From positions 1 through 51,589 of the IMG/VR virus record IMGVR_UViG_3300027743_000358: a DNA stretch of 51,589 nucleotides; one strand, 5' to 3'. The stretch's first letter is position 1; every line of letters begins with the position of its first letter. Under the pieces are notes generated by a model. The model was not told where the DNA came from. It ran no database searches and saw only the letters and a program-made list of their open reading frames with translations. A program made the position numbers and the translations under genes. Positions 22,776 to 50,762 of the stretch are shown in pieces. Origin of the DNA: a virus (Duplodnaviria; Caudoviricetes).

Positions 22776-24782
22776 ATGTTCTTATTTCATAGAAAACAAC
22801 CGAAAACATTACCATTAGGACTATTAGGACCAGACCCGAAAGACCCTAGAGATTACAAAATAGGTGAGATGCAGTTTGGAGAGGTGGCATTGCCAGCCGA
22901 GTTCAATTTAAGAAGCCAGATGACTCCTGTTAAGAATCAGAACCCACACGGAATATGCTTTCGTGGAGATACTCCTGTTTTGATGGAGGATTTATCTTAT
23001 AAGCCGATAAGAGAAATCAATGTCGGGGAATATGTTTTTACGCATTTTGGAAACATAAAGAGAGTTTCTAACAAAATTATAAGGAAATGGCAGGGAACGA
23101 CTAAAATAATTAAATTATGGGGTGATTTTAGGGAGATAGAATCTACGTCAGAACATCCATTTTTAGCAATAAAACGTTCTCCGAAGAATCATATAAGGGG
23201 TTATAAAGAGATAGATGGACAGATAGACTTTTACGGAATAGACGAATTGAAACGTGGAGATTGGTTAGCATATCCTTTTAATAATATTGTATTAGATAAA
23301 ACAATCTATAGTCTTGAAAAAGACCCAGAATTTCTGTGGTTACTTGGGATATATTTAGCGGAGGGGTCAATGGATGGAAACGAAATAAATTTCTCATTGC
23401 ATCAAAAAGAAACCGATTACGCAGAAAAGATAATAAGTATTTTCAAAAAATATAACGAGACAGCGAACATCCAAATCCATAAAAAAACGCTTGGTATGGA
23501 CGTTAGGGTTAGTTCAAAAAGGTTTGCCAAGTTATTGAAAGAATTGGGAGGAGAGATGTGCGATAAAAAAAGATTAGATAACAGATTAATGTTTCTTGAG
23601 CCGTCCCTCCAGATGGAAATTGTAAGAGGGTTGTTTGATGGAGATGCTGCTAAAAAGAAAACAGGTGATATGCTGACAACAACATCTTTGGAGTTGATGA
23701 TACAGGTTAAAACCATCCTATTGCGGAATAAGATTATGTCTTGTCTCCAGGAAATGAAAAGCACCCCGATTAAGAATGGTCTTAAGAAACCAGCGTGGCA
23801 TTTAACCCCGTCTAATAATTACAAAATATCATTTATAAAAGATAACTGGTGTTTTGTCTTGATAAGAGATATAAAACATAATAAATCGTATAATGGAGGT
23901 AGCGTTTATAATTTGGAGGTGGAAGATGACAATTCTTACCAAGTGAACGGAGTAGCTGTTCACAATTGCTATCAGATGGCAGCGACAGGAGTTAAGGAAT
24001 TCTGGGATTCTAAGGAGTCAGGAGAAGAGATAGATTTATCAGAAAGGTTTGGAGTATATAACACTAAGCAACTTTCAAATATTTGGCACACACAGGGGGA
24101 CTATGCTCACTATGCACTTAAAGCGATATGTGATTTTGGGTTGTGTTTAGAAAAAGACTGGCCTACTGATACGTCAATCCCTTGGAATGAATTTGCCAAG
24201 ACCAGACCACCAGAGGAATTGTTTGTCAAGGCGAAAGAGTTTAAGGGGCTAACATATTGGAGAGTAGACCATGCGGTAGAATCATTTAAACAAACTATTT
24301 ATCAGCAAAAAGCCCCGATACTGGTAGGCATGAGTTGGGATAAGGCATATAATATACCTTATTTGGGAGGCAAGTTACCATTACCAAGCGGAGATAAGGT
24401 GGGTGGACATTTCGTTATTTGTACTGGTTGGGATTCAACTGGGTTATGGTTTAAAAATAGTTGGTGGCCAGTCTGGGGGGACTCTGGATATTTCTATATA
24501 CCAGAAAGTGAGTTTGATAAACACGATATTTGGGATGCGTATGTACTTCTTGATGCTCCCAAGAAAGAACCGCTAGAGGGCTGGGTGGCTATCAAATATT
24601 TAGACGGAGTCACTTATGGTAAGGGAAGTATTGTAAAAACGTTAAACAACTTGACTCTTAGGAAGGATCCTAGTATAATTGGAGATAAATTAGACACACT
24701 AAAGAGGGGCACAATGGTAGAAATTGTTGACAACGAAATAAGGTCGGCAGACGGATATATTTGGCAGAAGATAAAAACATAA
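22776..24782 (+). CDS. Papain-like (C1A) cysteine peptidase with C-terminal SH3b-like domain, interrupted by an intein
   Basis: LPAEFNLR...PVKNQ..HGI|C, LSERF, GGHFVICTGW, FKNSW..WGDSGYFYI; C-terminal LTLRKDPS...LKRGTMVEIV...ADGYIWQKI. Confidence 0.85.
   Translation: MFLFHRKQPKTLPLGLLGPDPKDPRDYKIGEMQFGEVALPAEFNLRSQMTPVKNQNPHGICFRGDTPVLMEDLSYKPIREINVGEYVFTHFGNIKRVSNKIIRKWQGTTKIIKLWGDFREIESTSEHPFLAIKRSPKNHIRGYKEIDGQIDFYGIDELKRGDWLAYPFNNIVLDKTIYSLEKDPEFLWLLGIYLAEGSMDGNEINFSLHQKETDYAEKIISIFKKYNETANIQIHKKTLGMDVRVSSKRFAKLLKELGGEMCDKKRLDNRLMFLEPSLQMEIVRGLFDGDAAKKKTGDMLTTTSLELMIQVKTILLRNKIMSCLQEMKSTPIKNGLKKPAWHLTPSNNYKISFIKDNWCFVLIRDIKHNKSYNGGSVYNLEVEDDNSYQVNGVAVHNCYQMAATGVKEFWDSKESGEEIDLSERFGVYNTKQLSNIWHTQGDYAHYALKAICDFGLCLEKDWPTDTSIPWNEFAKTRPPEELFVKAKEFKGLTYWRVDHAVESFKQTIYQQKAPILVGMSWDKAYNIPYLGGKLPLPSGDKVGGHFVICTGWDSTGLWFKNSWWPVWGDSGYFYIPESEFDKHDIWDAYVLLDAPKKEPLEGWVAIKYLDGVTYGKGSIVKTLNNLTLRKDPSIIGDKLDTLKRGTMVEIVDNEIRSADGYIWQKIKT
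22956..23966 (+). mobile_element. Intein (337 aa) with LAGLIDADG homing endonuclease
   Basis: Starts CFRGDTPVLM; block B TSEHPF; LLGIYLAEGS and IVRGLFDGDA; ends VYNLEVEDDNSYQVNGVAVHN followed by Cys. Confidence 0.95.
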
Positions 24783-24811
24783 AGGTCGTACTTTATAATT
24801 AATCATAATAT

Positions 24812-25260
24812 ATGATACCAAAAAAACCATTGGAGTCGTAATTACGGTCCTGCTGTTCTCCTTGTGTACAGTGGGAAGCAACCTAGTTGCGGAAGCTCCA
24901 TCGATAGATACGGAAGTGTTGGCGGTGAAAGTGAGTAAATACTCGCCAGACTATCCAGAGCTTATCGAGAATCTTAATTGTTGCGAGAATTATTGTAGGT
25001 GGGATCAGAAGAAGATCATAGATAGCAACAATAAGTATTCATACGGAGGGTTGATGTTTCAAATGACTACGTTTTTGCACTATGGACACGAAGGTGGCAT
25101 ATTGCCCGAATGGGTTGACGAAACAAACTTCGAGAATTATATCTACGATAAAGACCTCCAAACGTTGATAGCAGAGTACATGATAACGATTGGCGTTGCT
25201 AAAACAACGGTTGGGTGGTATAATTGTTGGAGATCTTACAACCTTTCGCAGTATCTATAA
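24812..25260 (+). CDS. Lysozyme-like / lytic transglycosylase with N-terminal signal or anchor; needs a -1 shift at A7 (24820-24826)
   Basis: CCEN...YGGLMFQMTTF...W..C resembles SLT/Rpf motifs; the hydrophobic leader KKTIGVVITVLLFSLC is in frame with 24862-25260 but the ATG at 24812 is one base off. Confidence 0.6.
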
Positions 25261-25288
25261 AAGGGTAGCATACAATTAAATAAAACAG

Positions 25289-25519
25289 ATGAGTATATTA
25301 CAAAAGTTCGTAGAGTTCGTAACTGCACCAGAAATATCAACATTGATGTTAACCGGGATTAGCGCGGTATTAGGCTTATTGGCAACGTTTTTCGCAGGAC
25401 TTAACGTCTGGTGGGCAGTATTGATAACTGGCGTTATAAGGTCATTGATGCAGGTAATCAACACCAAATACAATATAGGTGGTAGAATTTTAGGAGGGTT
25501 GGGTATGGCCAAAAAATAG
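25289..25519 (+). CDS. Putative holin
   Basis: 76 aa, two hydrophobic helices, basic C-terminus, follows two lytic-enzyme candidates. Confidence 0.6.
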   Translation: MSILQKFVEFVTAPEISTLMLTGISAVLGLLATFFAGLNVWWAVLITGVIRSLMQVINTKYNIGGRILGGLGMAKK

Positions 25520-25521
25520 GC

Positions 25522-25567
25522 TGTGCATAACTTGCCTATTGACAAGATTTAATCCATTTGCTATAAT
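25522..25567 (+). promoter_or_regulatory. sigma70 promoter with upstream DnaA-type box
   Basis: TGTGCATAA 25522-30; TTGACA 25539-44, 17 bp, TG-n-TATAAT 25562-67. Confidence 0.9.
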
Positions 25568-25573
25568 GGAGAA

Positions 25574-25643
25574 GGCTAGGATGCCGAAAGTAAGCGGTAG
25601 CTCGCAAAGCTACTTTACGTGGGTGCGATTCCCACCCTAGCCT
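25574..25643 (+). tRNA. tRNA-Cys(GCA)-like, atypical
   Basis: Acceptor GGCTAGG/CCTAGCC, discriminator U; anticodon arm GTAGC-TCGCAAA-GCTAC; T arm GTGGG-TGCGATT-CCCAC; C33 and irregular D arm. Confidence 0.7.
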
Positions 25644-25701
25644 CAATATTCTTTTATTACAAAAAGGTCGCGGAGAGTATAATTAACTTATACTAGATAC
25701 A

Positions 25702-26475
25702 ATGATAAATATTAAAGATCCCGGAGTTGCTTTTAGCGATAAGGGACACGTCTATACTACACCTTCTGGAGAAATGTATACCGGCGTCACTACGATACTA
25801 GGAGTTAGATCTAAAGACTTTTTGCTTTGGTGGTCAGTTAAAGAGATGTATACATATATGTCCAAGAATTGGGACATAAATAAACAGTATACAGAGAAAG
25901 AAAAAGATGATTTGTTATTACTTGGCAAGAAGGCCCACACGATGAAGTCCAAAGATGCTTTGAATACTGGTACTATAGTACACGATTGGATAGAAAAGCA
26001 CATTATAGACCCTACTCATCCGATGCCAGATGACCCAGTGATAAGGTCTATTGTAGAACCATTCGTAGCGTGGGAAGCATTATCTGGTGTTGGGTGGCTT
26101 AAGACAGAGCTAGTTGTAGCAAGCCATGCTCATCAGTTTGCCGGGACATTAGACGCCTTGGCGATAGTCGATAAAAAGCTTACGTTATTGGATTTTAAAA
26201 CCAGTTCTCAAATGTCTGAGGAATATTTCTTGCAGACAGCAGGTTACCAGATAGCCCTAGAAGAAATGGGTGTAGTGCCAGAACAAAGGATGATTATACG
26301 CATACCCAAGGATGTTAGCCCGATAGAGGCGATAGTAGTTCCTACTCCTTTACAGTTCGACAAGGAGACGTTTCTACATCTACGCGAAGTTCATAGATGG
26401 AATATAAATATAATTAATAACTTCAAAGACAAGGATGGTAAATTATTATGTTGTCAGAATCTAAAAAATTCCTAG
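25702..26475 (+). CDS. PD-(D/E)xK exonuclease-like protein
   Basis: H.Y...GVTTIL, GTIVHDWIE, E..V...FAGTLD...LLDFKTS...YFLQTAGY. Confidence 0.85.
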   Translation: MINIKDPGVAFSDKGHVYTTPSGEMYTGVTTILGVRSKDFLLWWSVKEMYTYMSKNWDINKQYTEKEKDDLLLLGKKAHTMKSKDALNTGTIVHDWIEKHIIDPTHPMPDDPVIRSIVEPFVAWEALSGVGWLKTELVVASHAHQFAGTLDALAIVDKKLTLLDFKTSSQMSEEYFLQTAGYQIALEEMGVVPEQRMIIRIPKDVSPIEAIVVPTPLQFDKETFLHLREVHRWNINIINNFKDKDGKLLCCQNLKNS

Positions 26476-26834
26476 AAGAGCACGATTATAAGCCTAGGAT
26501 ATCATTCAAAGACGGTTTAGCGCATACTGTCGTGGTAAAAAGCGAAGAATCCCTTACTATTAACACGGCAGATGGGGAAAAACAAGGAATTAAGTACACG
26601 GTTGAAGAAGATGGCGAGGAAAGAGAGTTCTTTACATCTGCCGTTTCCCTTATAGGTAGGTTAGCTCAAGTGAATAAGGGTGATAAAATTATAATACAGA
26701 TGTTGAAGACCAAGGAGGGTGCGGATTATAAAAGCACTTTCTCTGTTAAAAAGGTCAATGCAGGATCGGCCAAACAGCAGGACGGTGTGTTGAATGGAGA
26801 TGATTACGATAATATCCCCATTATAGAAGAATAA
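26448..26834 (+). CDS. Putative single-stranded DNA-binding protein
   Basis: Beta-rich OB-like body, acidic tail DDYDNIPIIEE, next to the exonuclease. Confidence 0.5.
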   Translation: MLSESKKFLEEHDYKPRISFKDGLAHTVVVKSEESLTINTADGEKQGIKYTVEEDGEEREFFTSAVSLIGRLAQVNKGDKIIIQMLKTKEGADYKSTFSVKKVNAGSAKQQDGVLNGDDYDNIPIIEE

Positions 26835-26837
26835 GAT

Positions 26838-26949
26838 AATGACGAGCCCGTTCGATAGTCGGGGCCAAATAGCCAAGTTCAATTCACTGCGATTAGCAGA
26901 TATACATTAGCTATTGTCGAGCAAAAATCTATACGGCGGGCTGGTCATT
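26838..26949 (+). ncRNA. Intergenic rod-like structured RNA A
   Basis: AATGAC-G-AGCCCGT pairs with GCGGGCT-G-GTCATT; inner ATAG/CTAT, AATAGC/GCTATT, CTGC/GCAG. Confidence 0.55.
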
Positions 26950-26959
26950 TTAAAAACAT

Positions 26960-27172
26960 ATGAAATCAACAAGAGACGCATTTTATAAAGAGAGAGTATT
27001 AATGCCAGGGCTATCTGACATAATGTGCTTGGCGGAAGCGGTTGTCGGGAAGAACCTTTCTCGAGGGTCAATAACCAGATCTTTGAGCGAATTGGTAGAT
27101 AAAAATGACTACGAGAGCAGAGACAAGTCAAAAATTATAACGAATTTGGTCGCCCTCTCAAAAAGGGCTTGA
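26960..27172 (+). CDS. Hypothetical protein
   Basis: ORF with AT-rich start context. Confidence 0.55.
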   Translation: MKSTRDAFYKERVLMPGLSDIMCLAEAVVGKNLSRGSITRSLSELVDKNDYESRDKSKIITNLVALSKRA

Positions 27173-27306
27173 GGAGCACCTTTTATGGCACTTTTATGCC
27201 CCTCCTAGGCGTTGTAGGGCTAAAAAGGTAATATTATACCTTTAAGGGCAAAATCACTGTGGCGTGTCAATTATGGGCTTTTTAAATCAGATAAAATAAG
27301 AAAAAT

Positions 27307-28038
27307 ATGCAAAACGAATTTAAACTAGAGGAGAACCTTATAATATTGTCTGCTCCCACAATACAGGCGATATTAAAGGAAAAAAATCCTGCCGACATAC
27401 TAGCGTTATATGCTTTTTACTATTATACCGCTAAGTGGCAGAAGACCAATCAAGCATACGCATCTATATCTTTTACAAAGAAAGCCCTTCATCTGGGAGA
27501 AGATAGGATAAGTAAGGCCACTAAGGCGTTAATAAGACTAAAACTCATAGAAAGGATAGAAGATAGGGATGAAAATGGCAGGATCGCTCGTTATTACATC
27601 AAAATAAATTACATATGGTGCAAGGACACTTTAGACCGCTACCCCCAAAAGCCGGTAGGGGAAGATATACCACTACCCGAAATTGACGGTACCGGCAACC
27701 AGGAAGGAAATGCTTTAAGTGTTAATAATATAATATATAGTAAAGTAAAAACTTTACCCTCTAAAGAGAAAGATACAATACATAAAGATATAGGAGAGTT
27801 GTTCTCTTATTATAAGAAGCAGTTCTTGGACAAAGTCAGCAATACACCACCAGTGTTTAATTGGGGTGCCTGCGAGAAACTAGCCAGGCCCTTGATGAAA
27901 GACCTTGGGCTAGAACACATGAAACATCTTGTAGACGTTTACATGCGTACAAGAGATCAGTTCTACGTGGATAATGCTTATTCTCTTAGTTGCTTTCTAT
28001 CTACTAAAATAATTCACAAATTGAATCAAAAGAAATGA
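27307..28038 (+). CDS. Putative replication initiator (winged-helix, lambda O-like organisation)
   Basis: N-terminal wHTH-like (KKALHLGEDRISKATKALIRLKLIERI), central linker, upstream of the helicase. Confidence 0.7.
   Translation: MQNEFKLEENLIILSAPTIQAILKEKNPADILALYAFYYYTAKWQKTNQAYASISFTKKALHLGEDRISKATKALIRLKLIERIEDRDENGRIARYYIKINYIWCKDTLDRYPQKPVGEDIPLPEIDGTGNQEGNALSVNNIIYSKVKTLPSKEKDTIHKDIGELFSYYKKQFLDKVSNTPPVFNWGACEKLARPLMKDLGLEHMKHLVDVYMRTRDQFYVDNAYSLSCFLSTKIIHKLNQKK
27639..27755. other. Candidate replication origin (two iteron-like repeats plus AT-rich tract)
   Basis: CTACCC-N8-CGGTA at 27639 and 27673, then an AT-rich run, inside the initiator gene. Confidence 0.45.
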
Positions 28039-28097
28039 AAACTATATATTGGATCATTATATGCGTTGTCTTCATAGTATTATTTATAATCAGCTAA
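28035..28097 (+). CDS. 20-aa hydrophobic micro-ORF
   Basis: MKTIYWIIICVVFIVLFIIS*; ATGA overlap with the initiator stop; ends 1 nt before the helicase ATG. Confidence 0.45.
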   Translation: MKTIYWIIICVVFIVLFIIS

Positions 28098-28098
28098 C

Positions 28099-28977
28099 AT
28101 GGATATAGGCAAAATACCAGACCTAGACGAGGTCTCAGAGAACATCAAACCTATATTCGAAATAGCTCAGAAGTTTAAGCCCAGTACGTTTGTTATCCCA
28201 TCGTCACTTGACTCATTCGATAAAGTCATGGACGGTGGCTTCAGGGGTGGGGAATTAGTCGTCATGTCTGGCCAAACAGGTCAGGGAAAAACCATGCTCG
28301 GGCAGATACTCACGGCTAACTTTGACAAAATCGGTATACCTAGTTTGTGGTTTTCTTATGAGTGTAATCCGTGGTATTTGAAAGAGAAATTCGAACAGAT
28401 GGGTTGCACTAAGGACTTATTGGCGTATAGTCCAGTGGAATTGGTCGCAAACACCTTGGAGTTTATAGATAATAGGATAGACGAGGCCATAAGGCATTAC
28501 GGTTGCAAGGTTGTATTTATAGATCACTTGCACTATTTAATCCCCCTAGACCAGTCTGTTAATTCGTCTCTATTGATAGGTGGGATTGTCAGGGAACTGA
28601 AGAAGATGGCGGTTAAAAAAGATATAACTATATTCTTGATAGCTCATACAAAAAAGATATATCAAGATGAAAGGCTGGATTTATCGAGTATCAGAGATTC
28701 ATCCCTCATTTCTCAGGAGGCAGATTATGTTTTTCTGATAGAGAGAATTAAGAAGAGCGATAAAATCATGGAGTCCTCGGGGTCAGAGTGGACCAATCAG
28801 ACCAAGGTAGCGATAGCCAAAAATCGTAGAACCGGGAAGTTGGTATACTATACGTTCGAGGTGGTAGATAATCAATTAAAATTATTAGAAGATGACATCC
28901 CTACAATTGGATCGGCTCATAGACAGCATGAACTCATCGGTGAGCGCTATGATCAGCCTTTCGAAGTCCCGGATTAG
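28099..28977 (+). CDS. DnaB-like (SF4) replicative helicase, C-terminal domain only
   Basis: GQTGQGKT, VVFIDHLH, FLIAH, SIRDSSLISQEADYV, IAKNRRTG. Confidence 0.9.
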   Translation: MDIGKIPDLDEVSENIKPIFEIAQKFKPSTFVIPSSLDSFDKVMDGGFRGGELVVMSGQTGQGKTMLGQILTANFDKIGIPSLWFSYECNPWYLKEKFEQMGCTKDLLAYSPVELVANTLEFIDNRIDEAIRHYGCKVVFIDHLHYLIPLDQSVNSSLLIGGIVRELKKMAVKKDITIFLIAHTKKIYQDERLDLSSIRDSSLISQEADYVFLIERIKKSDKIMESSGSEWTNQTKVAIAKNRRTGKLVYYTFEVVDNQLKLLEDDIPTIGSAHRQHELIGERYDQPFEVPD

Positions 28978-29140
28978 TACTGATAGAATATTATATTGTC
29001 AGCTAATGAAGTCTTGGATAGAGATTGGCGAGCACTTGTTTTCGTTGACATTCGATCCAGAGCTATACAATAACATACAGACGATGAAGAATACACTGAT
29101 AAATTATAGCTTGTATACATCTGTGGATAAGTCTGCTTGA
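28892..29140 (+). CDS. Hypothetical protein
   Basis: ORF overlapping the helicase 3' end and filling the gap to the next promoter. Confidence 0.4.
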   Translation: MTSLQLDRLIDSMNSSVSAMISLSKSRISTDRILYCQLMKSWIEIGEHLFSLTFDPELYNNIQTMKNTLINYSLYTSVDKSA

Positions 29141-29165
29141 CAAGATCATATTAATTTGCTATACT
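29122..29165 (+). promoter_or_regulatory. sigma70 promoter with upstream DnaA box
   Basis: TGTGGATAA 29122-30; TTGACA 29137-42, 17 bp, TG-n-TATACT 29160-65. Confidence 0.85.
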
Positions 29166-29299
29166 TAGATTAGGTAATATTGTTAAATGATGATTGTATA
29201 AATTCCGCATAAAAATCTGATGGAATAAGGGTCAATACTGCGGTGATGTTAAATGACTAAATTAATAAATGATAAATAATGGGCTAGTTCTTTTCTGAA

Positions 29300-29422
29300 C
29301 GGGAGGTAGTGTCATATAACACGCACACTCATAAAGGTTAATGACCTCTGCACATAGGAAGCGGAGTTGTGCAGGAAGGAGTCCGCCTTAAATTGTAAGT
29401 TCAAATCTTACCATCCCGACCA
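29300..29422 (+). ncRNA. tRNA(CAU)-like RNA with structured insert and encoded CCA
   Basis: CGGGAGG/CATCCCG-A-CCA; D arm GTGT/ACAC; GCACA-CT-CAT-AA; T arm GTAAG-TTCAAAT-CTTAC; extra hairpins in between. Confidence 0.7.
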
Positions 29423-29461
29423 AAAGAGAATTAGCTCTAATAAATAATTAAACATAAAAAG

Positions 29462-29614
29462 ATGACTAATGAAGAAGCGAGGAATAAGTTGAGAGTATTG
29501 GTAGCTGAATTAGAATCATTAGATGATAGTGAATTTAATGCCAAAAATAAGAGCAATATAACTAAAGCGGTGGATTTATTAAAAGATGTTTCTGTATGGA
29601 ATTTTGAAGATTAA
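29462..29614 (+). CDS. Hypothetical 50-aa protein
   Basis: Hand translation MTNEEARNKLRVLVAELESL...WNFED*. Confidence 0.55.
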   Translation: MTNEEARNKLRVLVAELESLDDSEFNAKNKSNITKAVDLLKDVSVWNFED

Positions 29615-29676
29615 TTAGCTTTAATAAATAAAAGATGTGCGGAAGATGTGCGGATAAATAATTAAACCCTAATAAT

Positions 29677-29871
29677 ATGAAAGAAGAAAAAATCGTGGCA
29701 GTATTAACAATTTATTCTGCTTCTACTATGTCGGCAAAAGGGAAGAGAGATATAGATAATTGGCTGAATGAACAAGGCAAAAGCTTAATGAAAGAAGGGA
29801 AGAACTATCCTCCCAGATTTAGGGCAAAATATCTTTATGTGCCGAATAAAGACGACCACAAATTAGTTTAA
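29677..29871 (+). CDS. Hypothetical protein
   Basis: ORF in the tightly packed early run. Confidence 0.6.
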   Translation: MKEEKIVAVLTIYSASTMSAKGKRDIDNWLNEQGKSLMKEGKNYPPRFRAKYLYVPNKDDHKLV

Positions 29872-29880
29872 TTAAAATCT

Positions 29881-30072
29881 ATGGAAGACGAATTATATGA
29901 GGAAGCAAAAAGAATAGTTATAGAGGAACAAAAAGTGTCGGCTTCATTCTTGCAACGTAAGTTGCACATCGGATATGCTCGGTCAGCTTTATTGCTAGAT
30001 TTATTAGAAAATGAAGGAGTAATTGGTAAATATAATGGCACGAAACCTAGAGAAATACTATTAACTAACTAA
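29881..30072 (+). CDS. Stand-alone FtsK gamma (winged-helix) domain protein
   Basis: DELYEEAKRIVIEEQKVSASFLQRKLHIGYARSALLLDLLENEGVIG..NGTKPREIL closely follows the FtsK-gamma consensus. Confidence 0.9.
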   Translation: MEDELYEEAKRIVIEEQKVSASFLQRKLHIGYARSALLLDLLENEGVIGKYNGTKPREILLTN

Positions 30073-30077
30073 AACTT

Positions 30078-30398: not shown

Positions 30399-30399
30399 T

Positions 30400-30717: not shown

Positions 30718-30736
30718 CTAACATTAAATAAATAAT

Positions 30737-31322: not shown

Positions 31323-31323
31323 T

Positions 31324-35620: not shown

Positions 35621-35855
35621 GGTATAAAAATTTTTCCGCAGTTATGCTCTTTCTACTATGCTGTTGCAGTTTCGCTAGAATATGGGAGGGCGGTCATGTC
35701 GGGGTTGCGCTTTGCACTCTCTCGGTATGTACGATATGGGTCATAGGAGGAGTAAGTTATATTATTAACCGCGCAGGTTGGGATTAGATACATACCTCGC
35801 TGGATAAGCGCGAGGGTAAAGGTCGGAGTGTATATATAATTAAAAACATAATATT

Positions 35856-36206: not shown

Positions 36207-36665
36207 ATGAAAAAAGAAAGCGATCAAGAATTATTAAAAGTAGCGGTAGATTGGGTTAAGGAAGCCCAAAGATTATATGGTACAGATCTAGGTGGCAGGT
36301 ACACCCTATCTTCAAAGAATGACAAATATCAAGATAAGATTAGCGGGGCGTTGAATATCTTATGTACCCTCGGATCCGTAGGCGGTGATCCAGTTAGGGC
36401 GACTTGTATCCAATTAGAGCATATTCTTTGGAACTGGGTTTTCTCGGTTTGTAGAAATACAGATGAATTAGATAATCTAAGGCAAGCCATTCATGAAAAG
36501 GGGGTTGATGATTTTGATGATCCGAAATGGGAGATCATAGAGGAGATTTCGGACAATAAGTTTACCCTGTTCCCAGCAGAACAAGACGCTATGATCCGAG
36601 GATTCCTTTTTGATATAATCGGCTTTTACAAGATAATTAAGAGAGTAAAGGTCGGTGAAATATAA
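36207..36665 (+). CDS. Hypothetical protein
   Basis: First ORF after the promoter. Confidence 0.65.
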   Translation: MKKESDQELLKVAVDWVKEAQRLYGTDLGGRYTLSSKNDKYQDKISGALNILCTLGSVGGDPVRATCIQLEHILWNWVFSVCRNTDELDNLRQAIHEKGVDDFDDPKWEIIEEISDNKFTLFPAEQDAMIRGFLFDIIGFYKIIKRVKVGEI

Positions 36666-36674: not shown

Positions 36675-36854
36675 ATGAATAAATACTATTTGATAGTCAA
36701 TAATGTAGATTATACAGACAACGGAGGGAGGATTCAGAGTGTGAGCATGGAAGAATATGACACGCTAGAAGAAGCGCAAATAGACGTTCCTGTTGCTGAT
36801 AACTATATTATCCTAAAAGGTTGCGTTGTAGAGGGAGATATTAAGGATTTTTAG
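36675..36854 (+). CDS. Hypothetical 59-aa protein
   Basis: Hand translation MNKYYLIVNNVDY...EEYDTLEEAQ...KDF*; AAAGGTCG upstream. Confidence 0.6.
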   Translation: MNKYYLIVNNVDYTDNGGRIQSVSMEEYDTLEEAQIDVPVADNYIILKGCVVEGDIKDF

Positions 36855-38013: not shown

Positions 38014-38187
38014 ATGCCAGAATCAGACACAGACGATATAGATACTTTATGGGAGGATTTAAGTAGATCGTTGAGGGATCCAGTATTTACTCGTTGGATT
38101 TCCCGCGATCCAGTAGTCCGTAACGAGTTGTTTCAGATGTTAGATGATGAATCAAAAGATGATGAATCCGATTACATAAGGAAATGA
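38014..38187 (+). CDS. Hypothetical acidic protein
   Basis: MPESDTDD...DDESDYIRK*. Confidence 0.6.
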   Translation: MPESDTDDIDTLWEDLSRSLRDPVFTRWISRDPVVRNELFQMLDDESKDDESDYIRK

Positions 38188-38348
38188 TCAATAAAGAGTA
38201 TGACAAAAGGGTAGAAGAATTGGCGGTACAATTTAGGAATGGGGATATATCTTACACGGAGTTTTGGGACATGGTTAGGCGGTTGGAGTTGAAATTATTG
38301 TGTTCTTTGGGGCTTACCGATTATGAAGATGAGTATACAAGAAAATAA
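38184..38348 (+). CDS. Hypothetical 54-aa protein, paralog of 37860-38009
   Basis: MINKEYDKRVEELAVQFRNGDISYTEFWDMVRRLELK...YEDEYTRK*; ATGA overlap. Confidence 0.6.
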   Translation: MINKEYDKRVEELAVQFRNGDISYTEFWDMVRRLELKLLCSLGLTDYEDEYTRK

Positions 38349-38375
38349 AGGTCGCATTAAAATAATAACAAAAAC

Positions 38376-44114: not shown

Positions 44115-44382
44115 AAAATTAATTGTAAAATGGTTATTAAAAGCAATGGATCAAAAAGGGGACTATTTTGAGATAGACGAAGAGGCGATAGAGAAATGGT
44201 TAGCAACCAATTTCAAAAATCCCGGATTCAGAGAGTATGTCCGCAAAAGGGACTTAACATTGTTAAAGACAATTGGCGCAGGAGACTTTGATAGATTATT
44301 TCTTGGCCAAAGATTCGAAATTCTTAAGCTGACGCAGGAGGTCGATAGGGCTTATAGAAACTTAAGTAAAAAGGGTAAATAA
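44107..44382 (+). CDS. Hypothetical protein
   Basis: Small helical ORF overlapping the portal stop. Confidence 0.65.
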   Translation: MLKKLIVKWLLKAMDQKGDYFEIDEEAIEKWLATNFKNPGFREYVRKRDLTLLKTIGAGDFDRLFLGQRFEILKLTQEVDRAYRNLSKKGK

Positions 44383-44387
44383 AATAT

Positions 44388-44873
44388 ATGGATAAAAAAA
44401 TGAGACAACTTACACTAAAAAATTACTTTTTTGTCAGCGGGTTATATCAGGATACACTATCTTTAGCGGAGTGGTTAGTCAAGCAAATGTTGCACGGGAA
44501 AGAGTCCCGATGTAGAACAAGATTTATTAGGCTAACTAGCGATAAGATAAACGAAGTCCAGGATGAAAGATTAAAGTTGGTAGAAGCACATTCTAAGAGA
44601 GACGCAGATGGGAAACAATTGTTTAGAGATAAGGATGGTAATGAGATCGTGGACAAAGATAAGGCTACTAGTTTCGTTCTATCAGATGAAGACGCATTCA
44701 ATAAAGAATATGCGGATTATTTGAACGAAGATTATGTGATTGATATTCTTCCGGCCCAGTCAGAGATAATCAATGTAGTTAGGGATATATTATTGAACAC
44801 CCAAGAATCCTTTACGGGCAGACAAGCTACACTGTACGAGGAATGGTGTGAAAGTTTCGAAAAAATTAAATAG
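44388..44873 (+). CDS. Hypothetical protein
   Basis: ORF in the head module. Confidence 0.65.
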   Translation: MDKKMRQLTLKNYFFVSGLYQDTLSLAEWLVKQMLHGKESRCRTRFIRLTSDKINEVQDERLKLVEAHSKRDADGKQLFRDKDGNEIVDKDKATSFVLSDEDAFNKEYADYLNEDYVIDILPAQSEIINVVRDILLNTQESFTGRQATLYEEWCESFEKIK

Positions 44874-44885
44874 TTGACAATCTAT

Positions 44886-45010
44886 AAAAGGACGGAGCCC
44901 TTGCGAGGTTGTTTTCACTACCTAACTTTTCCGGCTCCGCCCTTTTGGTTAGGTGGTGAACAGAACCCCGTCAGGGGCAAAGGTCGCCAACTTGCATTGA
45001 ACGTGCAAGT
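44886..45010 (+). ncRNA. Pseudoknot / switch-like leader RNA before the scaffold gene
   Basis: 13-bp stem TTCACTACCTAAC/GTTAGGTGGTGAA whose loop GGCTCCGCCCTTTT is complementary (13/14) to upstream AAAAGGACGGAGCC. Confidence 0.6.
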
Positions 45011-45034
45011 CTAAATAATTAACGTTTTAAAACA

Positions 45035-45697
45035 ATGGCAGACGAAAACACAGACTTAAAAGACGGTGAAATGAAATCACTGGATGGTAGTGGTCAACCA
45101 GAAAAAAAAGCACCAGTAACATTAGATCCTCACGATCTTGATAACGATATTGACGGTTTGCTTGATAGCGACGACGATACCGAACTAGATTCATTTGATC
45201 AAGATGATACTGTAGCGGTTCCCAAGTCTAAGTGGTTGAAATTGCAGAGAGATAATACCAATTATAAGAAAGGCTTGAAGTCATTAAAGACGAAACTTAA
45301 GCCAGTTGTCTCGAAGCCGCAAGAAATTTCGACAGATAAGTTTATTACCAAGGACGAGTTTTTCAAGGGCATAGAAACGATGGCTATTGAAAAAGCCAAG
45401 TCCACTCCAGAAATAAAGGAACATTGGAATGATATTCTAAAGTACTATACTAACAGGAGAGGTAAAGACTCTGTTGATAAAATTTCAGCAGATATCAATG
45501 ATGCGTACTATTTATGGCAGAAGGATAATCCTTCTAAAGAAACTATGGATAATAAAGATGCGGCTGAATTAGCCGCGGATAAAGCAAAAACAGATACCGA
45601 CACTAAGGCGAATCAGGGGGAATCGAAAGAGAAAAAGCACATTCTTCAAAAGAGAGTGCCTGTTACCGAATGGTATAAAAAGCCAGAAGGTAAATAA
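45035..45697 (+). CDS. Capsid scaffolding protein (putative)
   Basis: Acidic N-terminus, charged coiled-coil, between portal and capsid. Confidence 0.7.
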   Translation: MADENTDLKDGEMKSLDGSGQPEKKAPVTLDPHDLDNDIDGLLDSDDDTELDSFDQDDTVAVPKSKWLKLQRDNTNYKKGLKSLKTKLKPVVSKPQEISTDKFITKDEFFKGIETMAIEKAKSTPEIKEHWNDILKYYTNRRGKDSVDKISADINDAYYLWQKDNPSKETMDNKDAAELAADKAKTDTDTKANQGESKEKKHILQKRVPVTEWYKKPEGK

Positions 45698-45727
45698 AGG
45701 TCGTAAGTAACGAAGAGTTTTGAAAGC

Positions 45728-46132
45728 ATGTTTAAACCAGTAAGATACGAACAAGGTAGTGTTGTAGAAATGCAAACAGGAACCTCTACCACCATCACCA
45801 AATATGATGCGTTGGTAGTATCTAGTGGTTATGTACAAAGAGCGGTTCATACTGATACAGAAATCAGATTTATCGCACTAGAAGACGTAACAACCGGAGG
45901 AACTGGAGCACACTCTGCAATATTATGCTTAAGAACAGACGGTATTCAATTTGAAGCTGACTGCACTCATGACTCTGCACAGTCCCAAGTCGGTACTAAA
46001 GTTGACTTAACTGACCACGACCACCTTGATAACGATAGTGCTAGCACAGATTACACCTTCTTAATTGAAGCGTTATCTGGAGCCACTACCAACAAGAAGG
46101 TTCTTGGAAGTTTTGTTATGAAGACCGCATAA
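45728..46132 (+). CDS. Capsid decoration / cement protein (putative)
   Basis: 134 aa, beta-rich, immediately before the MCP. Confidence 0.55.
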   Translation: MFKPVRYEQGSVVEMQTGTSTTITKYDALVVSSGYVQRAVHTDTEIRFIALEDVTTGGTGAHSAILCLRTDGIQFEADCTHDSAQSQVGTKVDLTDHDHLDNDSASTDYTFLIEALSGATTNKKVLGSFVMKTA

Positions 46133-46136
46133 ACAA

Positions 46137-47111
46137 ATGATTACGAAAAATGATTTTCCATCTTTGACTGACGACTTGCAAGAGATTTTCAATGATGTCG
46201 CCAGCAACAAAGTTTCCGCCAATATAGGTTTTAGTGTATTCAACGTATTCGATACAAATAGATTAACATACGATTACCAAATTTTACATGGTATTTCCGG
46301 TATTAAGAAAGTAGCAGAAGGTCAGGATCTTCCTGAAACAACTGGAGAAGATGGCGATTCCGCCACTTGGACACAGTCATACTACGGAGCTATTATCGCT
46401 ATTACTAAGAAAATGAGGAAATTTGATCTTTATGATCAAATCAATAGTATTGTTACATCTATTTCTGAAGATGCGTTTGACAAGGTAGATCAATCCTTAG
46501 CTGACGTTTTGTCACAGGGATGGTCAACCACATACACCGATGTCTATGGTGAAACAGTTTCCTCAGTTTGTCCAGACGGAGTGGCCCTATTCGGGACACA
46601 CTCAAACCCAGTATCTTCTACAACCTTCAGTAATATTATCACTGATGGCACAACCACAAACCCAACACTTTCTAGAGACGCATTAGTCTACATGAGAGCA
46701 CATGGCTTGAAGTTCAAAGATCCAAATGGAATAGTTAGACCTGTCAATTATGACACTTTGATTATTTCTCCAGATCTAGAGGACTTAGCCGAAAGAATTA
46801 TATATTCTTCCAGCATTCCAGGTTCCGCCAACAATGATATTAATCCATTGAAGGGGAAGATTACCAAGGTTATTGTTTGGCCAAGATTAGCTACAGCCGG
46901 AGATGGCACAAGTTTTGTCAATCAATGGTTCTTAGCAGAATCTAGCAAACTTGGTGAAACCTTAAAATGCTTATTCGCTGAAAGACCATCTTTAGATGCC
47001 CCAGAAGAAGTTTACGAAAACAAAAACTGGAAGTATTCTATCGATTTCTATTACACAATAGGAAGAGGTTATCCAGCTTATATAGCCGGTTCACAAGGAG
47101 ACAATACCTAG
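46137..47111 (+). CDS. Major capsid protein (HK97 fold, Mu gpT-like)
   Basis: KVAEGQDL, YGAIIAITKKM..FDLY, PDGVALF..H, LIISPDLE..AERI, ANNDINP, WFL. Confidence 0.85.
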   Translation: MITKNDFPSLTDDLQEIFNDVASNKVSANIGFSVFNVFDTNRLTYDYQILHGISGIKKVAEGQDLPETTGEDGDSATWTQSYYGAIIAITKKMRKFDLYDQINSIVTSISEDAFDKVDQSLADVLSQGWSTTYTDVYGETVSSVCPDGVALFGTHSNPVSSTTFSNIITDGTTTNPTLSRDALVYMRAHGLKFKDPNGIVRPVNYDTLIISPDLEDLAERIIYSSSIPGSANNDINPLKGKITKVIVWPRLATAGDGTSFVNQWFLAESSKLGETLKCLFAERPSLDAPEEVYENKNWKYSIDFYYTIGRGYPAYIAGSQGDNT

Positions 47112-47117
47112 TTCTAG

Positions 47118-47180
47118 GTAACTAATCCGCTTGAAGTTGTTTCTGTCCGAGACATTCAAGCGGGTAGGACAGATAGTTAC
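47118..47180 (+). ncRNA. Pseudoknot / switch-like RNA after the capsid gene
   Basis: GTAACTA/TAGTTAC, ATCCGCTTGAA/TTCAAGCGGGT, TGTTTC/GAGACA; apical TCTGTCC complementary to bulged GGACAGA. Confidence 0.6.
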
Positions 47181-47197
47181 AATTAATATATAAACAT

Positions 47198-47488
47198 ATG
47201 GAAGTTAGTTTAGACTGGGCAAAATTGCTCATGAAAGATAGAGTAAAGGCTATTGGTATTCCCTGGACAGCAGAGGAATTAAAGGCCTTGCAAAATGGAA
47301 TGACTCCGGAACAGGTTCGAGCCGGTATCTTGAAATCAGAAGATGAGGTAAAAATAGACGACGAACTATCAATGCTTACAAAGGGAGTTTTAGCAGATAG
47401 GGCCAGAGAACTTGGAATAGAGTTCTCAGAGAGAGAGGTTACTAGAGGAGACCTAATTCTAGAGATTAAAAAAGCGGAACTTAAATAA
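47198..47488 (+). CDS. Protein with C-terminal Rho-N/HeH-like domain
   Basis: LSMLTKGVLADRARELGIEF...TRGDLILEI. Confidence 0.6.
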   Translation: MEVSLDWAKLLMKDRVKAIGIPWTAEELKALQNGMTPEQVRAGILKSEDEVKIDDELSMLTKGVLADRARELGIEFSEREVTRGDLILEIKKAELK

Positions 47489-47580
47489 TTAACGACAAAA
47501 GGAGCGGTTGTCAAGTCGAAGGAGACAACCTTAAACCCAAAATCGCCCGTTCTTTCTTCGCCAAGTACGGGAATGCTGGA

Positions 47581-47883
47581 ATGCGAAGCGAGTTGTTACA
47601 TTTACAGAGGAATCATTCTACAAAATCTGAACGTAGGATATCCGAAATATTAAAGAAGAACCACATAAAGTTTTACGCAAAAAGACGTATAGGAAAATAT
47701 GAGGTGGACTTTTTAATAGGCAAGATGATATTGGAAGTTGACGGTGCTGTACATCGTGACCAGCCCATAGACCGAGACCAATATTTTCTTTCTAGTGGGT
47801 ATCTACCGGTTCATATCGATAATGGTCCCTATGATATACAATTCGAGCAAGACTTAATTCATTTTATCGAATTAAATGGATAA
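47581..47883 (+). CDS. DUF559 / Vsr-like endonuclease
   Basis: TKSERRI..IL...IGKYEVDFLI...ILEVDG..H....RDQYF..SGY. Confidence 0.8.
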   Translation: MRSELLHLQRNHSTKSERRISEILKKNHIKFYAKRRIGKYEVDFLIGKMILEVDGAVHRDQPIDRDQYFLSSGYLPVHIDNGPYDIQFEQDLIHFIELNG

Positions 47884-50035
47884 TACAAATTTCAACAAAA
47901 CTGGGTTTGGTTGGCTAGAGTTAAAAGACTATACATCCAATCCTACAGATACTAGCACAAAATATGCTGGAATCTGTTCAGTAAACGGAGCAGCGATGTT
48001 CTGGAATAAAAGTTCCTGGGCCGCGATTGCTTCTGGTGGATCGTCTCATGCGATGCTTTCTTCAACGCACACAGACTCTACCGCAGGAACATGCACAAGG
48101 GGAGATATTATAACTGCCCAGGGTGCAACTGCAAAATGGACCAGATTGGCCAAGGGAGATGCAAATAAGTTCCTTATTATGGGAGCCGCAGAACCCGGAT
48201 GGTCAACCTATACGTTAGCATTGACTGGTAATGTTACCACCGGTGGTGCCTTAACATTTAGTGGAGCATATGCTGCCACATTCACATTGACCAACACGAC
48301 ATCAGTTACCCTTCCAACTAGTGGAACATTAATGGCTAACCCGATGTCAACCGCAGGAGCCTTGATCTATGGAGGAGTGGCCGGTGCCGCAACCTCATTA
48401 GTAATTGGAGCTGCGAATACCGTCTTGAAGACAGACGGAACAAACCCATCATGGGGAGCATTAGTTAACGCAAATATTGACGCTGCTGCTGCAATAGCAT
48501 GGAGCAAGATGGCAGCGTTAGCCTCTGCACACATCTTAGTTGGAAGTGCCGGAAACGTTGCAACAGACGTAGCACTTACAGGAGATGTCGCTATAACAAA
48601 TGCAGGACTTTCTACAGTAACTGATCTTACAATAACATCAGAAGCTGCCGGAGATCTGTTATATTTTAATGGAGTTAACTGGGTTAGATTAGCGAAACCA
48701 GGATCAGCAGGATACTTCTTGGAGGGAGGCACAACTCCCGCATGGAGCTTGCCATCATTGGCATCAGCTAGTTCGATCCAAACTGGAGCAACATTATTGG
48801 ATGCAGGAGCTAACGATGCTACCATCACCTTTACTACACAAACTACTGGTGGTGCTAGCGTAGTTGTTCCAGACTTCAATGCCGCTACAGCTTATACGTT
48901 TGCGTTTAAGAACTTCGCCCAAACTTGGACTGCTAATCAGACAGTACAGTATGGCAAACTATATTTAGGAGATAGTGATAACGGTCAGACCCTACAGATT
49001 CTCGTTAATGAGAATATGACTGGCGATAAGACCATTACTATTCAACCTAATGATACCAACAGGACGATTCACTTACACGGAGACATTGATCTAGGTGGTA
49101 CATTAACCACACTAGGAGCGTGGACCCAAACAGGGGCCCATACCATTGGGATCACAACAACTAATAATACTACCCTAACGTTACCAGTAACTGGAACGTT
49201 GGCAACATTAGCTGGGGCAGAATCTTTATCTACAAAGACATTGACTGCGCCAAAGATTGTTACCACAGATGGTATTATGGATGCAGGAGGAGACGAATAT
49301 TTAATATTTGTTGAATCTGGCACGCCGGTAAACTTCTTGACAATAACATCTGCAGATACTGGAGTTGCTCCAATGCTTACAGCAAGCGGAAGTGATGACA
49401 ATGTAGACCTAATGTTACATGGAAAGGGGACCGGAAACGTAGTCTTCACAGATGGGGCAGATATAACAGCGAAGGTTGTTGTAGAGATTGATGGTGCCAC
49501 TACTGGAAAGACAATGACATTGACTTGTTCTCATACAGATAACAGGGCATTGACATTACCAGATGCTACAGACACATTAGTTGGAAAGGCTACAACCGAT
49601 ACTCTTACTAACAAAACAATTGATTGCGATGGAACTGGAAACGTTATTACTAACGTTAACCATACCGAGCTAGATCCAGTCGGAGATGCCGCATTTGGTA
49701 TCCCATTTGTAGTAAGCAAGACAGTTGCGAACTTAGCAGAAGCAGGGACCAACATCGTTACTACTAACAAGAAATTGAGAGTATTAGATGCTTGGTTTGT
49801 CGCTACAAGTGCAGATTCTGGAACAATAGCTGTTCATGCCGGACAGGTTGGATCAGTAGGAACTGCCATAGTAGACGCCATAACTGTTGCTGCCGCAGAC
49901 AAGGGAGTTTCAAGAGCTGCATCTATAAATGATGCTGCATGGGACTTATCCGAGGACGGCGGATTGGTAGCTGTCGGAGATGGCGGTGCCTCTATCGACG
50001 GAACCATATATGTGATGTGCATGAGAATTAACTAA
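47876..50035 (+). CDS. Fibre-like structural protein (head fibre / whisker)
   Basis: Ala/Gly/Thr-rich; repeats GDII/GALIY/GDLLY and TLPTSGTL/TLPVTGTL/TLPDATDTL. Confidence 0.7.
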   Translation: MDNTNFNKTGFGWLELKDYTSNPTDTSTKYAGICSVNGAAMFWNKSSWAAIASGGSSHAMLSSTHTDSTAGTCTRGDIITAQGATAKWTRLAKGDANKFLIMGAAEPGWSTYTLALTGNVTTGGALTFSGAYAATFTLTNTTSVTLPTSGTLMANPMSTAGALIYGGVAGAATSLVIGAANTVLKTDGTNPSWGALVNANIDAAAAIAWSKMAALASAHILVGSAGNVATDVALTGDVAITNAGLSTVTDLTITSEAAGDLLYFNGVNWVRLAKPGSAGYFLEGGTTPAWSLPSLASASSIQTGATLLDAGANDATITFTTQTTGGASVVVPDFNAATAYTFAFKNFAQTWTANQTVQYGKLYLGDSDNGQTLQILVNENMTGDKTITIQPNDTNRTIHLHGDIDLGGTLTTLGAWTQTGAHTIGITTTNNTTLTLPVTGTLATLAGAESLSTKTLTAPKIVTTDGIMDAGGDEYLIFVESGTPVNFLTITSADTGVAPMLTASGSDDNVDLMLHGKGTGNVVFTDGADITAKVVVEIDGATTGKTMTLTCSHTDNRALTLPDATDTLVGKATTDTLTNKTIDCDGTGNVITNVNHTELDPVGDAAFGIPFVVSKTVANLAEAGTNIVTTNKKLRVLDAWFVATSADSGTIAVHAGQVGSVGTAIVDAITVAAADKGVSRAASINDAAWDLSEDGGLVAVGDGGASIDGTIYVMCMRIN

Positions 50036-50043
50036 GATTGATA

Positions 50044-50084
50044 CTCTACGAGGGAGACCCTCGACCAGTCTCCCTCCGGTAGAG
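50044..50084 (+). other. Intergenic hairpin
   Basis: CTCTAC-GAGGGAGAC-loop-GTCTCCCTC-CG-GTAGAG, ending 7 nt before ATG 50092. Confidence 0.55.
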
Positions 50085-50091
50085 AAATATA

Positions 50092-50292
50092 ATGCCCGCG
50101 ACCTCGAAATCACAATTTAGACTTATGGCAGCGATATGCCAAGGAAGTTATCCAGACGGATATAGGGGAATCTCTAAAAAGGTTGCCTGTGAATTTGTCA
50201 AAGGACAACACCCAGACGGTCTGCCGCAGAAAAAGTCTAATAAAAATAATTATAATAAGAATACGCACTATAAAGTTCTTTATAAGGGCTGA
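50092..50292 (+). CDS. Small basic protein (MPAxSKxQxRLMAA type)
   Basis: MPATSKSQFRLMAA...GISKKVACEF. Confidence 0.65.
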   Translation: MPATSKSQFRLMAAICQGSYPDGYRGISKKVACEFVKGQHPDGLPQKKSNKNNYNKNTHYKVLYKG

Positions 50293-50306
50293 TAGTGTTA
50301 ATATAT

Positions 50307-50729
50307 ATGGACAGATCATACACGCCAGGAATGGTATATAATCCAACGTTATTATCAGCGGTTGGGGTTTCTACTTCTCCGTTGACAGTTACGTCAGCTA
50401 CTCAACCTGTAGCAGGTGCTAAGGGTGTTGGGTTTGAACTTACTGGGGCTAGTATCACTACCAGATCCGCAGTATTCACAGTGACTGCTTCAATGGATGG
50501 GGGGACAACATATAACGCATATTCTATGCTTATAAGTAACTTAGCCAATACCAACAGTCAAACTCTAACTAGGGTCGCATCTATTACAAGAGCAGCTACA
50601 GGAACCGATATGTGTTGGATGACGCCAGAGACATTATCTGGAATCACGCATATTAAAGCGACATTAGTAATAACCGATACTGGTACTCCGGCCGGGACGT
50701 TTACTGTCAAAGCCGTGGTAACCTATTAA
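50307..50729 (+). CDS. Putative virion structural protein
   Basis: Thr-rich beta-sandwich with ASMDGGTTY motif. Confidence 0.55.
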   Translation: MDRSYTPGMVYNPTLLSAVGVSTSPLTVTSATQPVAGAKGVGFELTGASITTRSAVFTVTASMDGGTTYNAYSMLISNLANTNSQTLTRVASITRAATGTDMCWMTPETLSGITHIKATLVITDTGTPAGTFTVKAVVTY

Positions 50730-50762
50730 AGGTCAATTGTAAACAATTAAATATAAAACAAA

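Follow-up and report, generated by a model that had tools for sequence, protein, structure and literature searches.

We found that an 8-nt motif, AAAGGUCG, recurs on the coding strand close upstream of start codons in a 51,589-bp stretch of viral DNA (positions 1 to 51,589 of the Caudoviricetes record IMGVR_UViG_3300027743_000358; hereafter the window, meaning the whole stretch that was analyzed), in other phages, and in gene leaders of candidate host bacteria. The motif is, to judge from its sequence contexts, a host signal shared with the phage. Our best explanation, which we hold to have about an even chance of being right, is that AAAGGUCG would be a host-derived RNA leader signal for translation start independent of Shine-Dalgarno (SD) pairing and that the phage co-opted it. 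When present in a 5′ leader, it would mark mRNAs without an SD site for efficient translation start. The hosts would be very small-genome, Parcubacteria-like bacteria, some of them without an anti-SD, and the phage would have copied their signal and would use it far more densely. We infer action on RNA and on initiation and, more tentatively, helix 26 (h26) of 16S rRNA as the partner.

The viral record is 91% complete, and every gene is on the plus strand. When both strands of the whole window were counted, AAAGGTCG had seven exact copies, all on the plus strand; the mean in shuffled sequences was 1.08, and 0 of 100 shuffles reached seven. This recount agrees with an earlier sequence-only reading of the window, which had named seven sense-strand copies with gaps to their ATGs of 23, 31, 30, 20, 21, 24, and 48 nt. 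These gaps were correct. Plus-strand positions lying 12 to 50 nt 5′ of a called start make up only 5.5%, and the probability that at least six of the seven copies would fall there is 1.9e-7. The AAGGTC 6-mer by itself was not enriched (21 observed versus 20.85 expected). In three of the seven copies, the motif runs over the TAA that ends the gene before it; a fourth copy lies within the upstream gene. The copies, with the start-proximal variants and the hairpin beside copy 6, are as follows.

24781 to 24788, plus strand: AAAGGTCG copy 1, overlapping the TAA stop of a 668-aa gene, with ATAATTAA 6 nt later; downstream start ambiguous.
25663 to 25670, plus strand: AAAGGTCG copy 2, 18 nt past tRNA-Cys and 31 nt before ATG 25702 (257 aa, PD-(D/E)XK nuclease family).
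35818 to 35825, plus strand: AAAGGTCG copy 3, directly 3′ of a hairpin and 30 nt before ATG 35856 (69 aa).
36647 to 36654, plus strand: AAAGGTCG copy 4, within the 3′ end of gene 36207-36665 and 20 nt before ATG 36675 (59 aa).
38347 to 38354, plus strand: AAAGGTCG copy 5, overlapping the TAA stop of gene 38184-38348 and 21 nt before ATG 38376 (38 aa).
44979 to 44986, plus strand: AAAGGTCG copy 6, in the structured leader of a 220-aa gene and 48 nt before ATG 45035.
44990 to 45010, plus strand: 8-bp hairpin between copy 6 and its ATAATTAA box.
45696 to 45703, plus strand: AAAGGTCG copy 7, overlapping the TAA stop of gene 45035-45697 and 24 nt before ATG 45728 (134 aa).
8626 to 8633, plus strand: AGAGGTCG variant, 21 nt before ATG 8655.
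20390 to 20397, plus strand: AAAGGTCA variant, 24 nt before ATG 20422 (81 aa).
36816 to 36823, plus strand: AAAGGTTG variant, 34 nt before ATG 36858; its C>T change keeps a G-U pair.
50728 to 50735, plus strand: AAAGGTCA variant, 27 nt before ATG 50763 (187 aa).

The sequence-only reading had each perfect copy followed by a start codon. The enrichment before starts supports this in general, but ATG 24812, 23 nt past copy 1, opens an open reading frame (ORF) of only 9 codons. The long ORF after ATG 24812 is read in a different frame, where TTG 24862 is the first canonical start. At 24789-24870, the ORF that follows the lysin gene encodes a membrane segment at its N terminus and a region resembling lysozyme. 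No ATG, GTG, or TTG precedes the hydrophobic segment; in-frame ATC and ATA codons lie 13 to 21 nt past copy 1. The ORF could have a noncanonical start or a frameshift. The same reading had called the spacers A/T rich, which they are, but they hold a specific box, ATAATTAA, that it missed; it also overlooked the start-proximal AAAGGTTG at 36816. The one-mismatch copies that it named at 8626, 20390, 50728, and 26750 were found where they had been placed.

We then compared the motif with an SD site. An SD 4-mer core was present at -20 to -4 in 3 of the 69 window genes versus 19% of random windows, and none of the 69 called genes had GGAGG or a five-of-six SD core there, as the sequence-only reading had stated for native genes. 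The motif contains no GGAGG-type core complementary to CCUCC. Its spacing is also unlike the roughly 4 to 12 nt of an SD: it lies 20 to 48 nt from starts in the window, 14 to 40 nt in most of the 120 phage copies described below, and 30 to 46 nt in the candidate host genome G199. Thus, the earlier statement that the motif is not an SD holds, since both its sequence and its distance (14 to 48 nt) are wrong for one. Pairing with the 16S 3′ tail was rejected; the motif is not complementary to it. The starts themselves had a distinct context, with T at -1 in 58% of window genes and 73% of G199 genes and A-rich positions -2 to -6 in both; AATTAA/ATTAAA were enriched at -22 to -3 of starts in G199 and in the window. 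The phage and the candidate host lineage therefore have a Kozak-like start context in common.

Next, we asked how the motif is used in other phages. A megablast of 23 kb of the window against named phages gave no match, and the sequencing runs listed as holding window sequence were just two DNA runs from freshwater sediment, with no RNA run among them. Terminase relatives carried (A)AAGGTCG on the gene strand ahead of starts. A scan of viral contigs with the composite pattern AAAGGTCG-N5-11-ATAATTAA gave 117 loci, mostly single matches at about chance level; 25 of the 117 hold 3 to 8 motif copies on one strand, at about one per kb. We drew 120 nonredundant phage copies from 25 sources. An ATG-initiated ORF of at least 30 aa began 15 to 40 nt past the motif for 92 of the 120 copies, against 12.8% of random positions, and 15 copies had no ORF start within 80 nt. 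The sequence-only reading had proposed looking at related phages and candidate hosts, and its observation extends to both: in G199, 14 of 15 exact copies lie in leaders. The motif-to-start distance in the phage copies has a sharp lower limit at 14 to 17 nt and a broad upper tail. Genes 3′ of the motif are small (median, 85 aa), and 94 of the 283 genes within motif clusters carry it. Among 118 phage copies, 40 were inside the upstream ORF as called, 19 were over its stop, and 26 were 0 to 30 nt past it. The motif behaves as a per-gene signal, with 59 of the 118 copies in the upstream ORF or over its stop.

The motif-rich contigs are related in part. One terminase family links 11 of 27, and we found no small protein family common to them; only terminase links them. 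To judge from the alignments, the motif is conserved at orthologous intergenic sites while its flanks diverge. Downstream of the scaffold gene, the leader retains AAAGGTYN in the window (copy 7) and in the related loci L127, L126, and L143, whereas the remaining spacer has diverged. The motif of copy 6 is likewise present at the orthologous site in L127 and L141. The hairpin at 44990-45010 is part of the predicted minimum-energy fold of the window only; L127 has an inverted repeat of different sequence at the matching position, which is absent from its own predicted minimum-energy fold. The scaffold leader folds of the window and L127 have z-scores of -1.6 and -1.0. The structured leader of copy 6 also holds AAAGGACG, with one mismatch, at 44887-44894, 92 nt 5′ of the copy. 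L126 is a close relative that shares 11 proteins; its 15 kb hold no exact AAAGGTCG, but it retains ATAATTAA boxes and, at one orthologous site, has AAAGGTCA together with a hairpin. Close relatives differ in their use of the motif.

Variants of the motif were tolerated at its 3′ end. Among one-mismatch copies in motif-rich phages, 7 of 14 with G>A and 3 of 5 with G>T at position 8, and 7 of 26 with C>T at position 7, were start proximal; mismatches at positions 1 to 6 almost never were. AAAGGTTG at 36816 is a possible member of the motif set, with a less A/T-rich spacer. Membership of AGAGGTCG at 8626 is doubtful: its A>G change at position 2 was start proximal elsewhere in 0 of 1 case. The C>T change at position 7 keeps a G-U pair with the loop G discussed below and so fits pairing; the variant pattern also fits a pyrimidine/purine transcription start site.

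It is improbable, in our judgment, that the motif is a DNA promoter element, in which it would be either an upstream box of an alternative phage or host promoter class, working with ATAATTAA as a -10-like box, or a discriminator or start-site element, producing short-leader transcripts gene by gene. The box and the predicted promoters of the window are as follows.

25679 to 25686, plus strand: ATAATTAA box, 8 nt past copy 2.
24795, 35836, and 45015, plus strand: ATAATTAA boxes after copies 1, 3, and 6.
295, 1076, 2330, 6825, 11935, 20756, 29444, 32986, and 40042, plus strand: further examples of ATAATTAA.
4804, 20701, 24651, 25539, 29137, 32833, 36158, 38556, 39319, and 40017, plus strand: sigma-70 consensus promoters (TTGACA-16/18-TATAAT, 11 to 12 of 12 positions).
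25539 to 25567, plus strand: sigma-70 promoter matching at 12 of 12 positions, upstream of tRNA-Cys and copy 2.

ATAATTAA is the commonest 8-mer on the plus strand of the window, with 23 copies there versus 1 on the minus strand, and its 3′ ends are mostly 6 to 15 nt before an ATG, including in the structural gene block. It follows AAAGGTCG by 6 to 10 nt at three window sites, has near-copies at two further sites, and lies 28 nt away across the hairpin at 44979. It also recurs in unrelated motif-rich viral contigs. It came after the motif in 34 of the 120 phage copies, with a spacing of 5 to 6 nt in 19; by ascertainment, every pattern-hit locus contributes at least one such site. This counts toward a promoter element, as does the tolerance of a pyrimidine and a purine at motif positions 7 and 8, which a -1/+1 start site would also show. 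A separate promoter for each small gene is common in the early regions of phages, as in T4, and the motif cluster of the motif-rich phage record G407 (36.5 kb, 89% complete) occupies a small-gene array adjoining divergent canonical promoters. However, 86 of the 120 copies have no ATAATTAA within 45 nt downstream, an inserted hairpin separates the motif from the box at two orthologous sites, and ATAATTAA itself lies inside the predicted 5′ untranslated regions (5′ UTRs) of promoters 20701, 29137, and 32833. ATAATTAA is not simply the -10 box of the canonical promoters, because TAA follows the -10 box in only 1 of 10. It may be an RNA signal, a -10-like late promoter, or a matter of composition.

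We aligned the 120 phage copies on the motif and found no conserved column outside (A/T)AAAGGTCG(G), only G/C depletion downstream; no base stood at a fixed distance outside this 8- to 9-mer, and no TA...T peak was present at any offset. Thus, there is no fixed spacing to a -10 hexamer, and the claim of the sequence-only reading that the motif is not tied to promoters was supported to this extent. Canonical promoters do lie upstream. Among 15 host copies and 119 phage copies, 7 and 13, respectively, had a sigma-70 promoter (at least 10 of 12 positions) ending 0 to 45 nt before the motif, against a background of 0.02 per window, at distances that varied from 3 to 44 nt. All transcription starts here are predicted. 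With these predicted promoters 5′ of it, at distances that are not fixed, the motif falls within the leader of the predicted transcript. Copy 2, for example, is inside a predicted transcript because the promoter at 25539-25567 lies upstream, and a promoter-like site (10 of 12) ends 9 nt upstream of copy 4. At promoter 40017, only 9 nt separate the -10 box from ATG 40056, which suggests a near-leaderless transcript. Searches of the window and of the motif-rich records G405 to G408 gave no match to a sigma factor (sigma-70 r2 and r4_2) or an RNA polymerase, the polymerase having been sought with PHROGs, Pfam, and PDB sequence searches of large proteins in the window and G407; divergent proteins are possible in each case. 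As the aligned sequences have it, the motif is not a core promoter box.

A motif in the transcribed leader could also be an RNA processing or stabilizing site, where an endonuclease cut or a protective factor near the new 5′ end would give stable monocistronic mRNAs with A-rich leaders. We regard this as quite unlikely. There is about one copy per gene in operons, often over the upstream stop; copy 2 comes after a tRNA and copies 3 and 6 come after hairpins; and in first genes the motif is near the predicted 5′ end, all of which would suit such a site. However, it is the distance to the start codon that is constrained while the distance to the promoter varies, and we identified no nuclease candidate.

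We next examined candidate hosts. The terminase relatives were found in genome bins of 1.0 to 1.3 Mb, and we infer a Patescibacteria/Parcubacteria-like host lineage, from rRNA features among others. We sampled 401 genomes of that phylum (0.4 to 2.1 Mb). Raw counts of the 8-mer showed no mass use, and the idea of a phage-only motif that came from these counts was dropped once sequence contexts showed leader copies. The raw counts include some AAAGGTCG copies that arise at tRNA variable-loop/T-stem junctions (G274:C4:29323 and G182:C2:53241). An excess of the motif in G261 was explained by coding-sequence composition. Within 364 kb of G199 (31% GC), the 14 leader copies are in A/T-rich sequence and the remaining copy is coding. 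Eleven copies are 30 to 87 nt ahead of nine ORFs, which encode, by Pfam, ATP synthase c, type IV pilin, a T4SS-pilin-like protein, two KhpA paralogs (one with a tandem motif), an MscS-like protein, Fe/Mn superoxide dismutase, HU, and FMN reductase. Several of these are typically abundant proteins. The motif-to-start distance in G199 was 35.4 ± 5.3 nt versus 24.7 ± 14.1 nt from the -10 box to the motif. Leader-type copies were also found in G030 (about 9 of the 17 copies listed), G165 (about 11 of 20, one before a pilin gene), G105 (including a pilin gene), and G040 (at least 6 of 32). Copies in G376 and G168 appear to be coding.

The gene khpA was a recurrent carrier. The exact motif is in the khpA leader of nine genomes, namely G199 (both paralogs), G165, G030, G105, G210, G025, G274, G367, and G073, and AGGTCG alone is in that of G137, G115, G271, G140, and G040. 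An SD-type sequence precedes khpA in the nonusers G046, G071, G321, G090, and G027. These data raise the possibility, unlikely in our view, that the motif would be the binding site of host KhpA/KhpB, with a regulon that includes khpA itself through autoregulation and into which phage genes are plugged, acting on translation or mRNA stability. KH domains make 4-nt contacts with RNA, and a linear 8-nt site would fit two 4-nt KH/R3H contacts. The presence of the motif in the khpA leader and on client mRNAs (in G199, by Pfam), its restriction to about 3% of genes, and its occurrence in tandem copies agree with a regulon. In the available part of the report on Campylobacter jejuni KhpA/B, pulldowns were enriched for 5′ UTRs (10.64898/2026.10.12.757534), which also agrees. 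Against this, Thermus KhpB makes few RNA base contacts, and no RNA sequence motif is defined for Thermus or C. jejuni in the portions of the sources available. Moreover, khpA lies within a ribosome-related operon of well-expressed genes and may simply be another client, and a stability factor would not need the constrained distance to the start codon. No KhpA-type KH domain protein was found in the window or in G405 to G408, and no S21 match was found in the window or the motif-rich phage records; divergent proteins are possible for both.

For a reader of the signal, we turned to 16S rRNA. According to the accessible part of one survey, an anti-SD is detected in only 48% of Parcubacteria, and their h26 is highly conserved, adjoins the SD helix, and has a role described as "unknown" (PMC9297842). 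We read the 16S 3′ ends in 142 genomes. Five had no CCTCC-like core (G199, G030, G165, G180, and G182), and eight had an altered one (G274, G203, G151, G218, G035, G039, G188, and G111). The altered cores, such as CATCTCC, CACTTCC, ACCGCC, and CCACCCC, form a graded series of anti-SD decay in one phylum. Among the genomes without the core, G199, G030, and G165 use the motif and G182 does not; compared against motif counts, anti-SD loss was 4 of 29 versus 0 of 17, which was not significant (P = 0.28). At the 16S 3′ end of G199 (locus L235), a different tail stands in place of the anti-SD and makes up a perfect 11-bp inverted repeat with the spacer that follows, and so the mature 3′ end is uncertain. 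The 16S tail of G182 (L260 to L278) is altered (GGATTAATTC...), and the leaders of this genome do not use the motif; its TATAAT/TACAAT/TATACT hexamers are enriched at -22 to -3 of starts. This suggests widespread leaderless mRNAs as an alternative answer to anti-SD loss in G182. We also considered ATAATTAA as a rewired SD for altered 16S tails (G182 and G165) and found no support for it: AATTAA was not enriched upstream of starts in G182, which has the -10-like hexamers instead, and the complement of the G199 tail was not enriched.

The sequence-only reading had guessed at h26, and the complementarity that this guess requires was found. Using conserved anchors, we recovered h26 from 30 of 80 genomes. 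The predicted apical loop in G199 is UGUCGACC; that of G030 is identical, and RNAfold gives an 8-nt loop. CGACC was present in the loop of 19 of the 30 genomes, usually as UAUCGACC, and in G030 besides, and it is complementary to the GGUCG of the motif. Among the 19 are the motif users G199, G040, G274, G367, G210, G025, and G073. CGACC loops were found in 13 of 15 genomes chosen for high leader-context counts versus 3 of 11 chosen for zero counts (Fisher P = 0.004). A khpA leader with AGGTCG was present in 12 of the 19 CGACC-loop genomes versus 0 of 11 others (hypergeometric, about 6e-4, the genomes not being independent). GGUCG would pair with CGACC in the conserved 8-nt loop, which would dock the leader on the 30S platform, from where an unstructured, A-rich spacer of at least 14 to 17 nt would reach the P site. 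Within the explanation of AAAGGUCG as a host-derived initiation signal, the h26 apical loop is our preferred partner; taken together, signal and partner make a tentative proposal that falls short of even.

Several observations weigh against this explanation. The association between loop and motif across genomes lacks phylogenetic independence, and nonusers (G182, G001, G321, G090, G027, and G139) carry the CGACC loop as well, so that the loop is not sufficient. Among the h26 loops retrieved, no lineage had a changed loop together with a matching changed motif. The pairing spans only 5 nt; the invariant AAA faces C and stem bases and is left unexplained, and it is on this and on the lack of a compensatory pair that the earlier guess falls short. 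The base after the motif is G or A in 76 of 120 phage copies, about background, and does not extend the pairing. The full 8-nt complement of the motif is absent from G199 16S, and the best 7-bp complement there, at 1299-1305, is in a paired helix and is equaled by 3 of 60 shuffled motifs. The motif was not significantly more unpaired than it was with shuffled flanks (0.554 versus 0.525; P = 0.09), and in the predicted fold of the scaffold leader in the window, part of copy 6 is paired to bases that lie upstream. The motif is on only about 3% of host genes. Finally, G040 has a canonical anti-SD together with its leader-type copies, at least six in number. Since G040 keeps its anti-SD yet uses the motif, the signal is not simply a replacement for the SD.

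The signal resembles known systems in different respects. Like the SD, AAAGGUCG is a short, strand-specific, purine-rich mRNA element 5′ of starts, used per gene, in operons, and over upstream stops, and base pairing with 16S rRNA may be how it is read. Unlike the SD, it has no complementarity to the 16S 3′ tail, stands 14 to 48 nt rather than 4 to 12 nt from the start, is on only about 3% of host genes, and is used both without CCUCC (G199, G030, and G165) and with it (G040). In the termination upstream ribosome-binding sites (TURBS) of caliciviruses and influenza B virus, as the available portions of the sources describe them, a viral mRNA motif upstream of a start or restart codon is likewise proposed to pair with the apical part of h26 of the small subunit, and several AAAGGTCG copies are right after or over the upstream stop (19 of 118 overlapping). 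However, TURBS in those sources act on eukaryotic 18S rRNA, depend on termination, and have extra structured motifs, whereas AAAGGUCG also heads the first genes of transcripts and is a host signal, and the h26 pairing is here predicted.

We know of no discrete upstream 8-mer in Bacteroidia. These bacteria, in the accessible part of a recent report, have Kozak-like, SD-independent initiation with a sequestered anti-SD (PMC13000453). Their SD-blind ribosomes, A-rich unstructured leaders, and start-adjacent bases as described there are like what we see (here T at -1 and A at -2 to -6); unlike here, the anti-SD is retained, and the promoters of our phages and hosts are canonical TTGACA/TATAAT, not of the Bacteroidia type. 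CsrA GGA sites and other autoregulatory leaders also involve a short single-stranded leader motif, tandem copies, and a regulon that includes the gene of the candidate binder, here khpA. In contrast to such sites, the AAAGGUCG 8-mer is far more invariant and its start distance is constrained, and the binder here is a candidate. Literature searches on SD use and phages of Patescibacteria and on noncanonical ribosome-binding sites of bacteriophages, covering texts outside supplementary tables, turned up no description of the motif, and a literature search with the sequence string gave primer matches only.

In an anti-SD-less, Parcubacteria-like lineage, ribosome docking may have moved to the h26 loop, giving a second, independently evolved SD-like system, and phages may have multiplied the signal to capture host ribosomes; we offer this as a conjecture with a less than even chance. 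How bacteria without an anti-SD pick starts and set expression is an open question, and the complementarity between motif and h26 makes it a testable hypothesis. The motif is common to hosts and a broad set of their phages. It could serve as a marker that links uncultured phages to this host lineage, and it could improve the calling of gene starts in such genomes and the prediction of strongly expressed genes.

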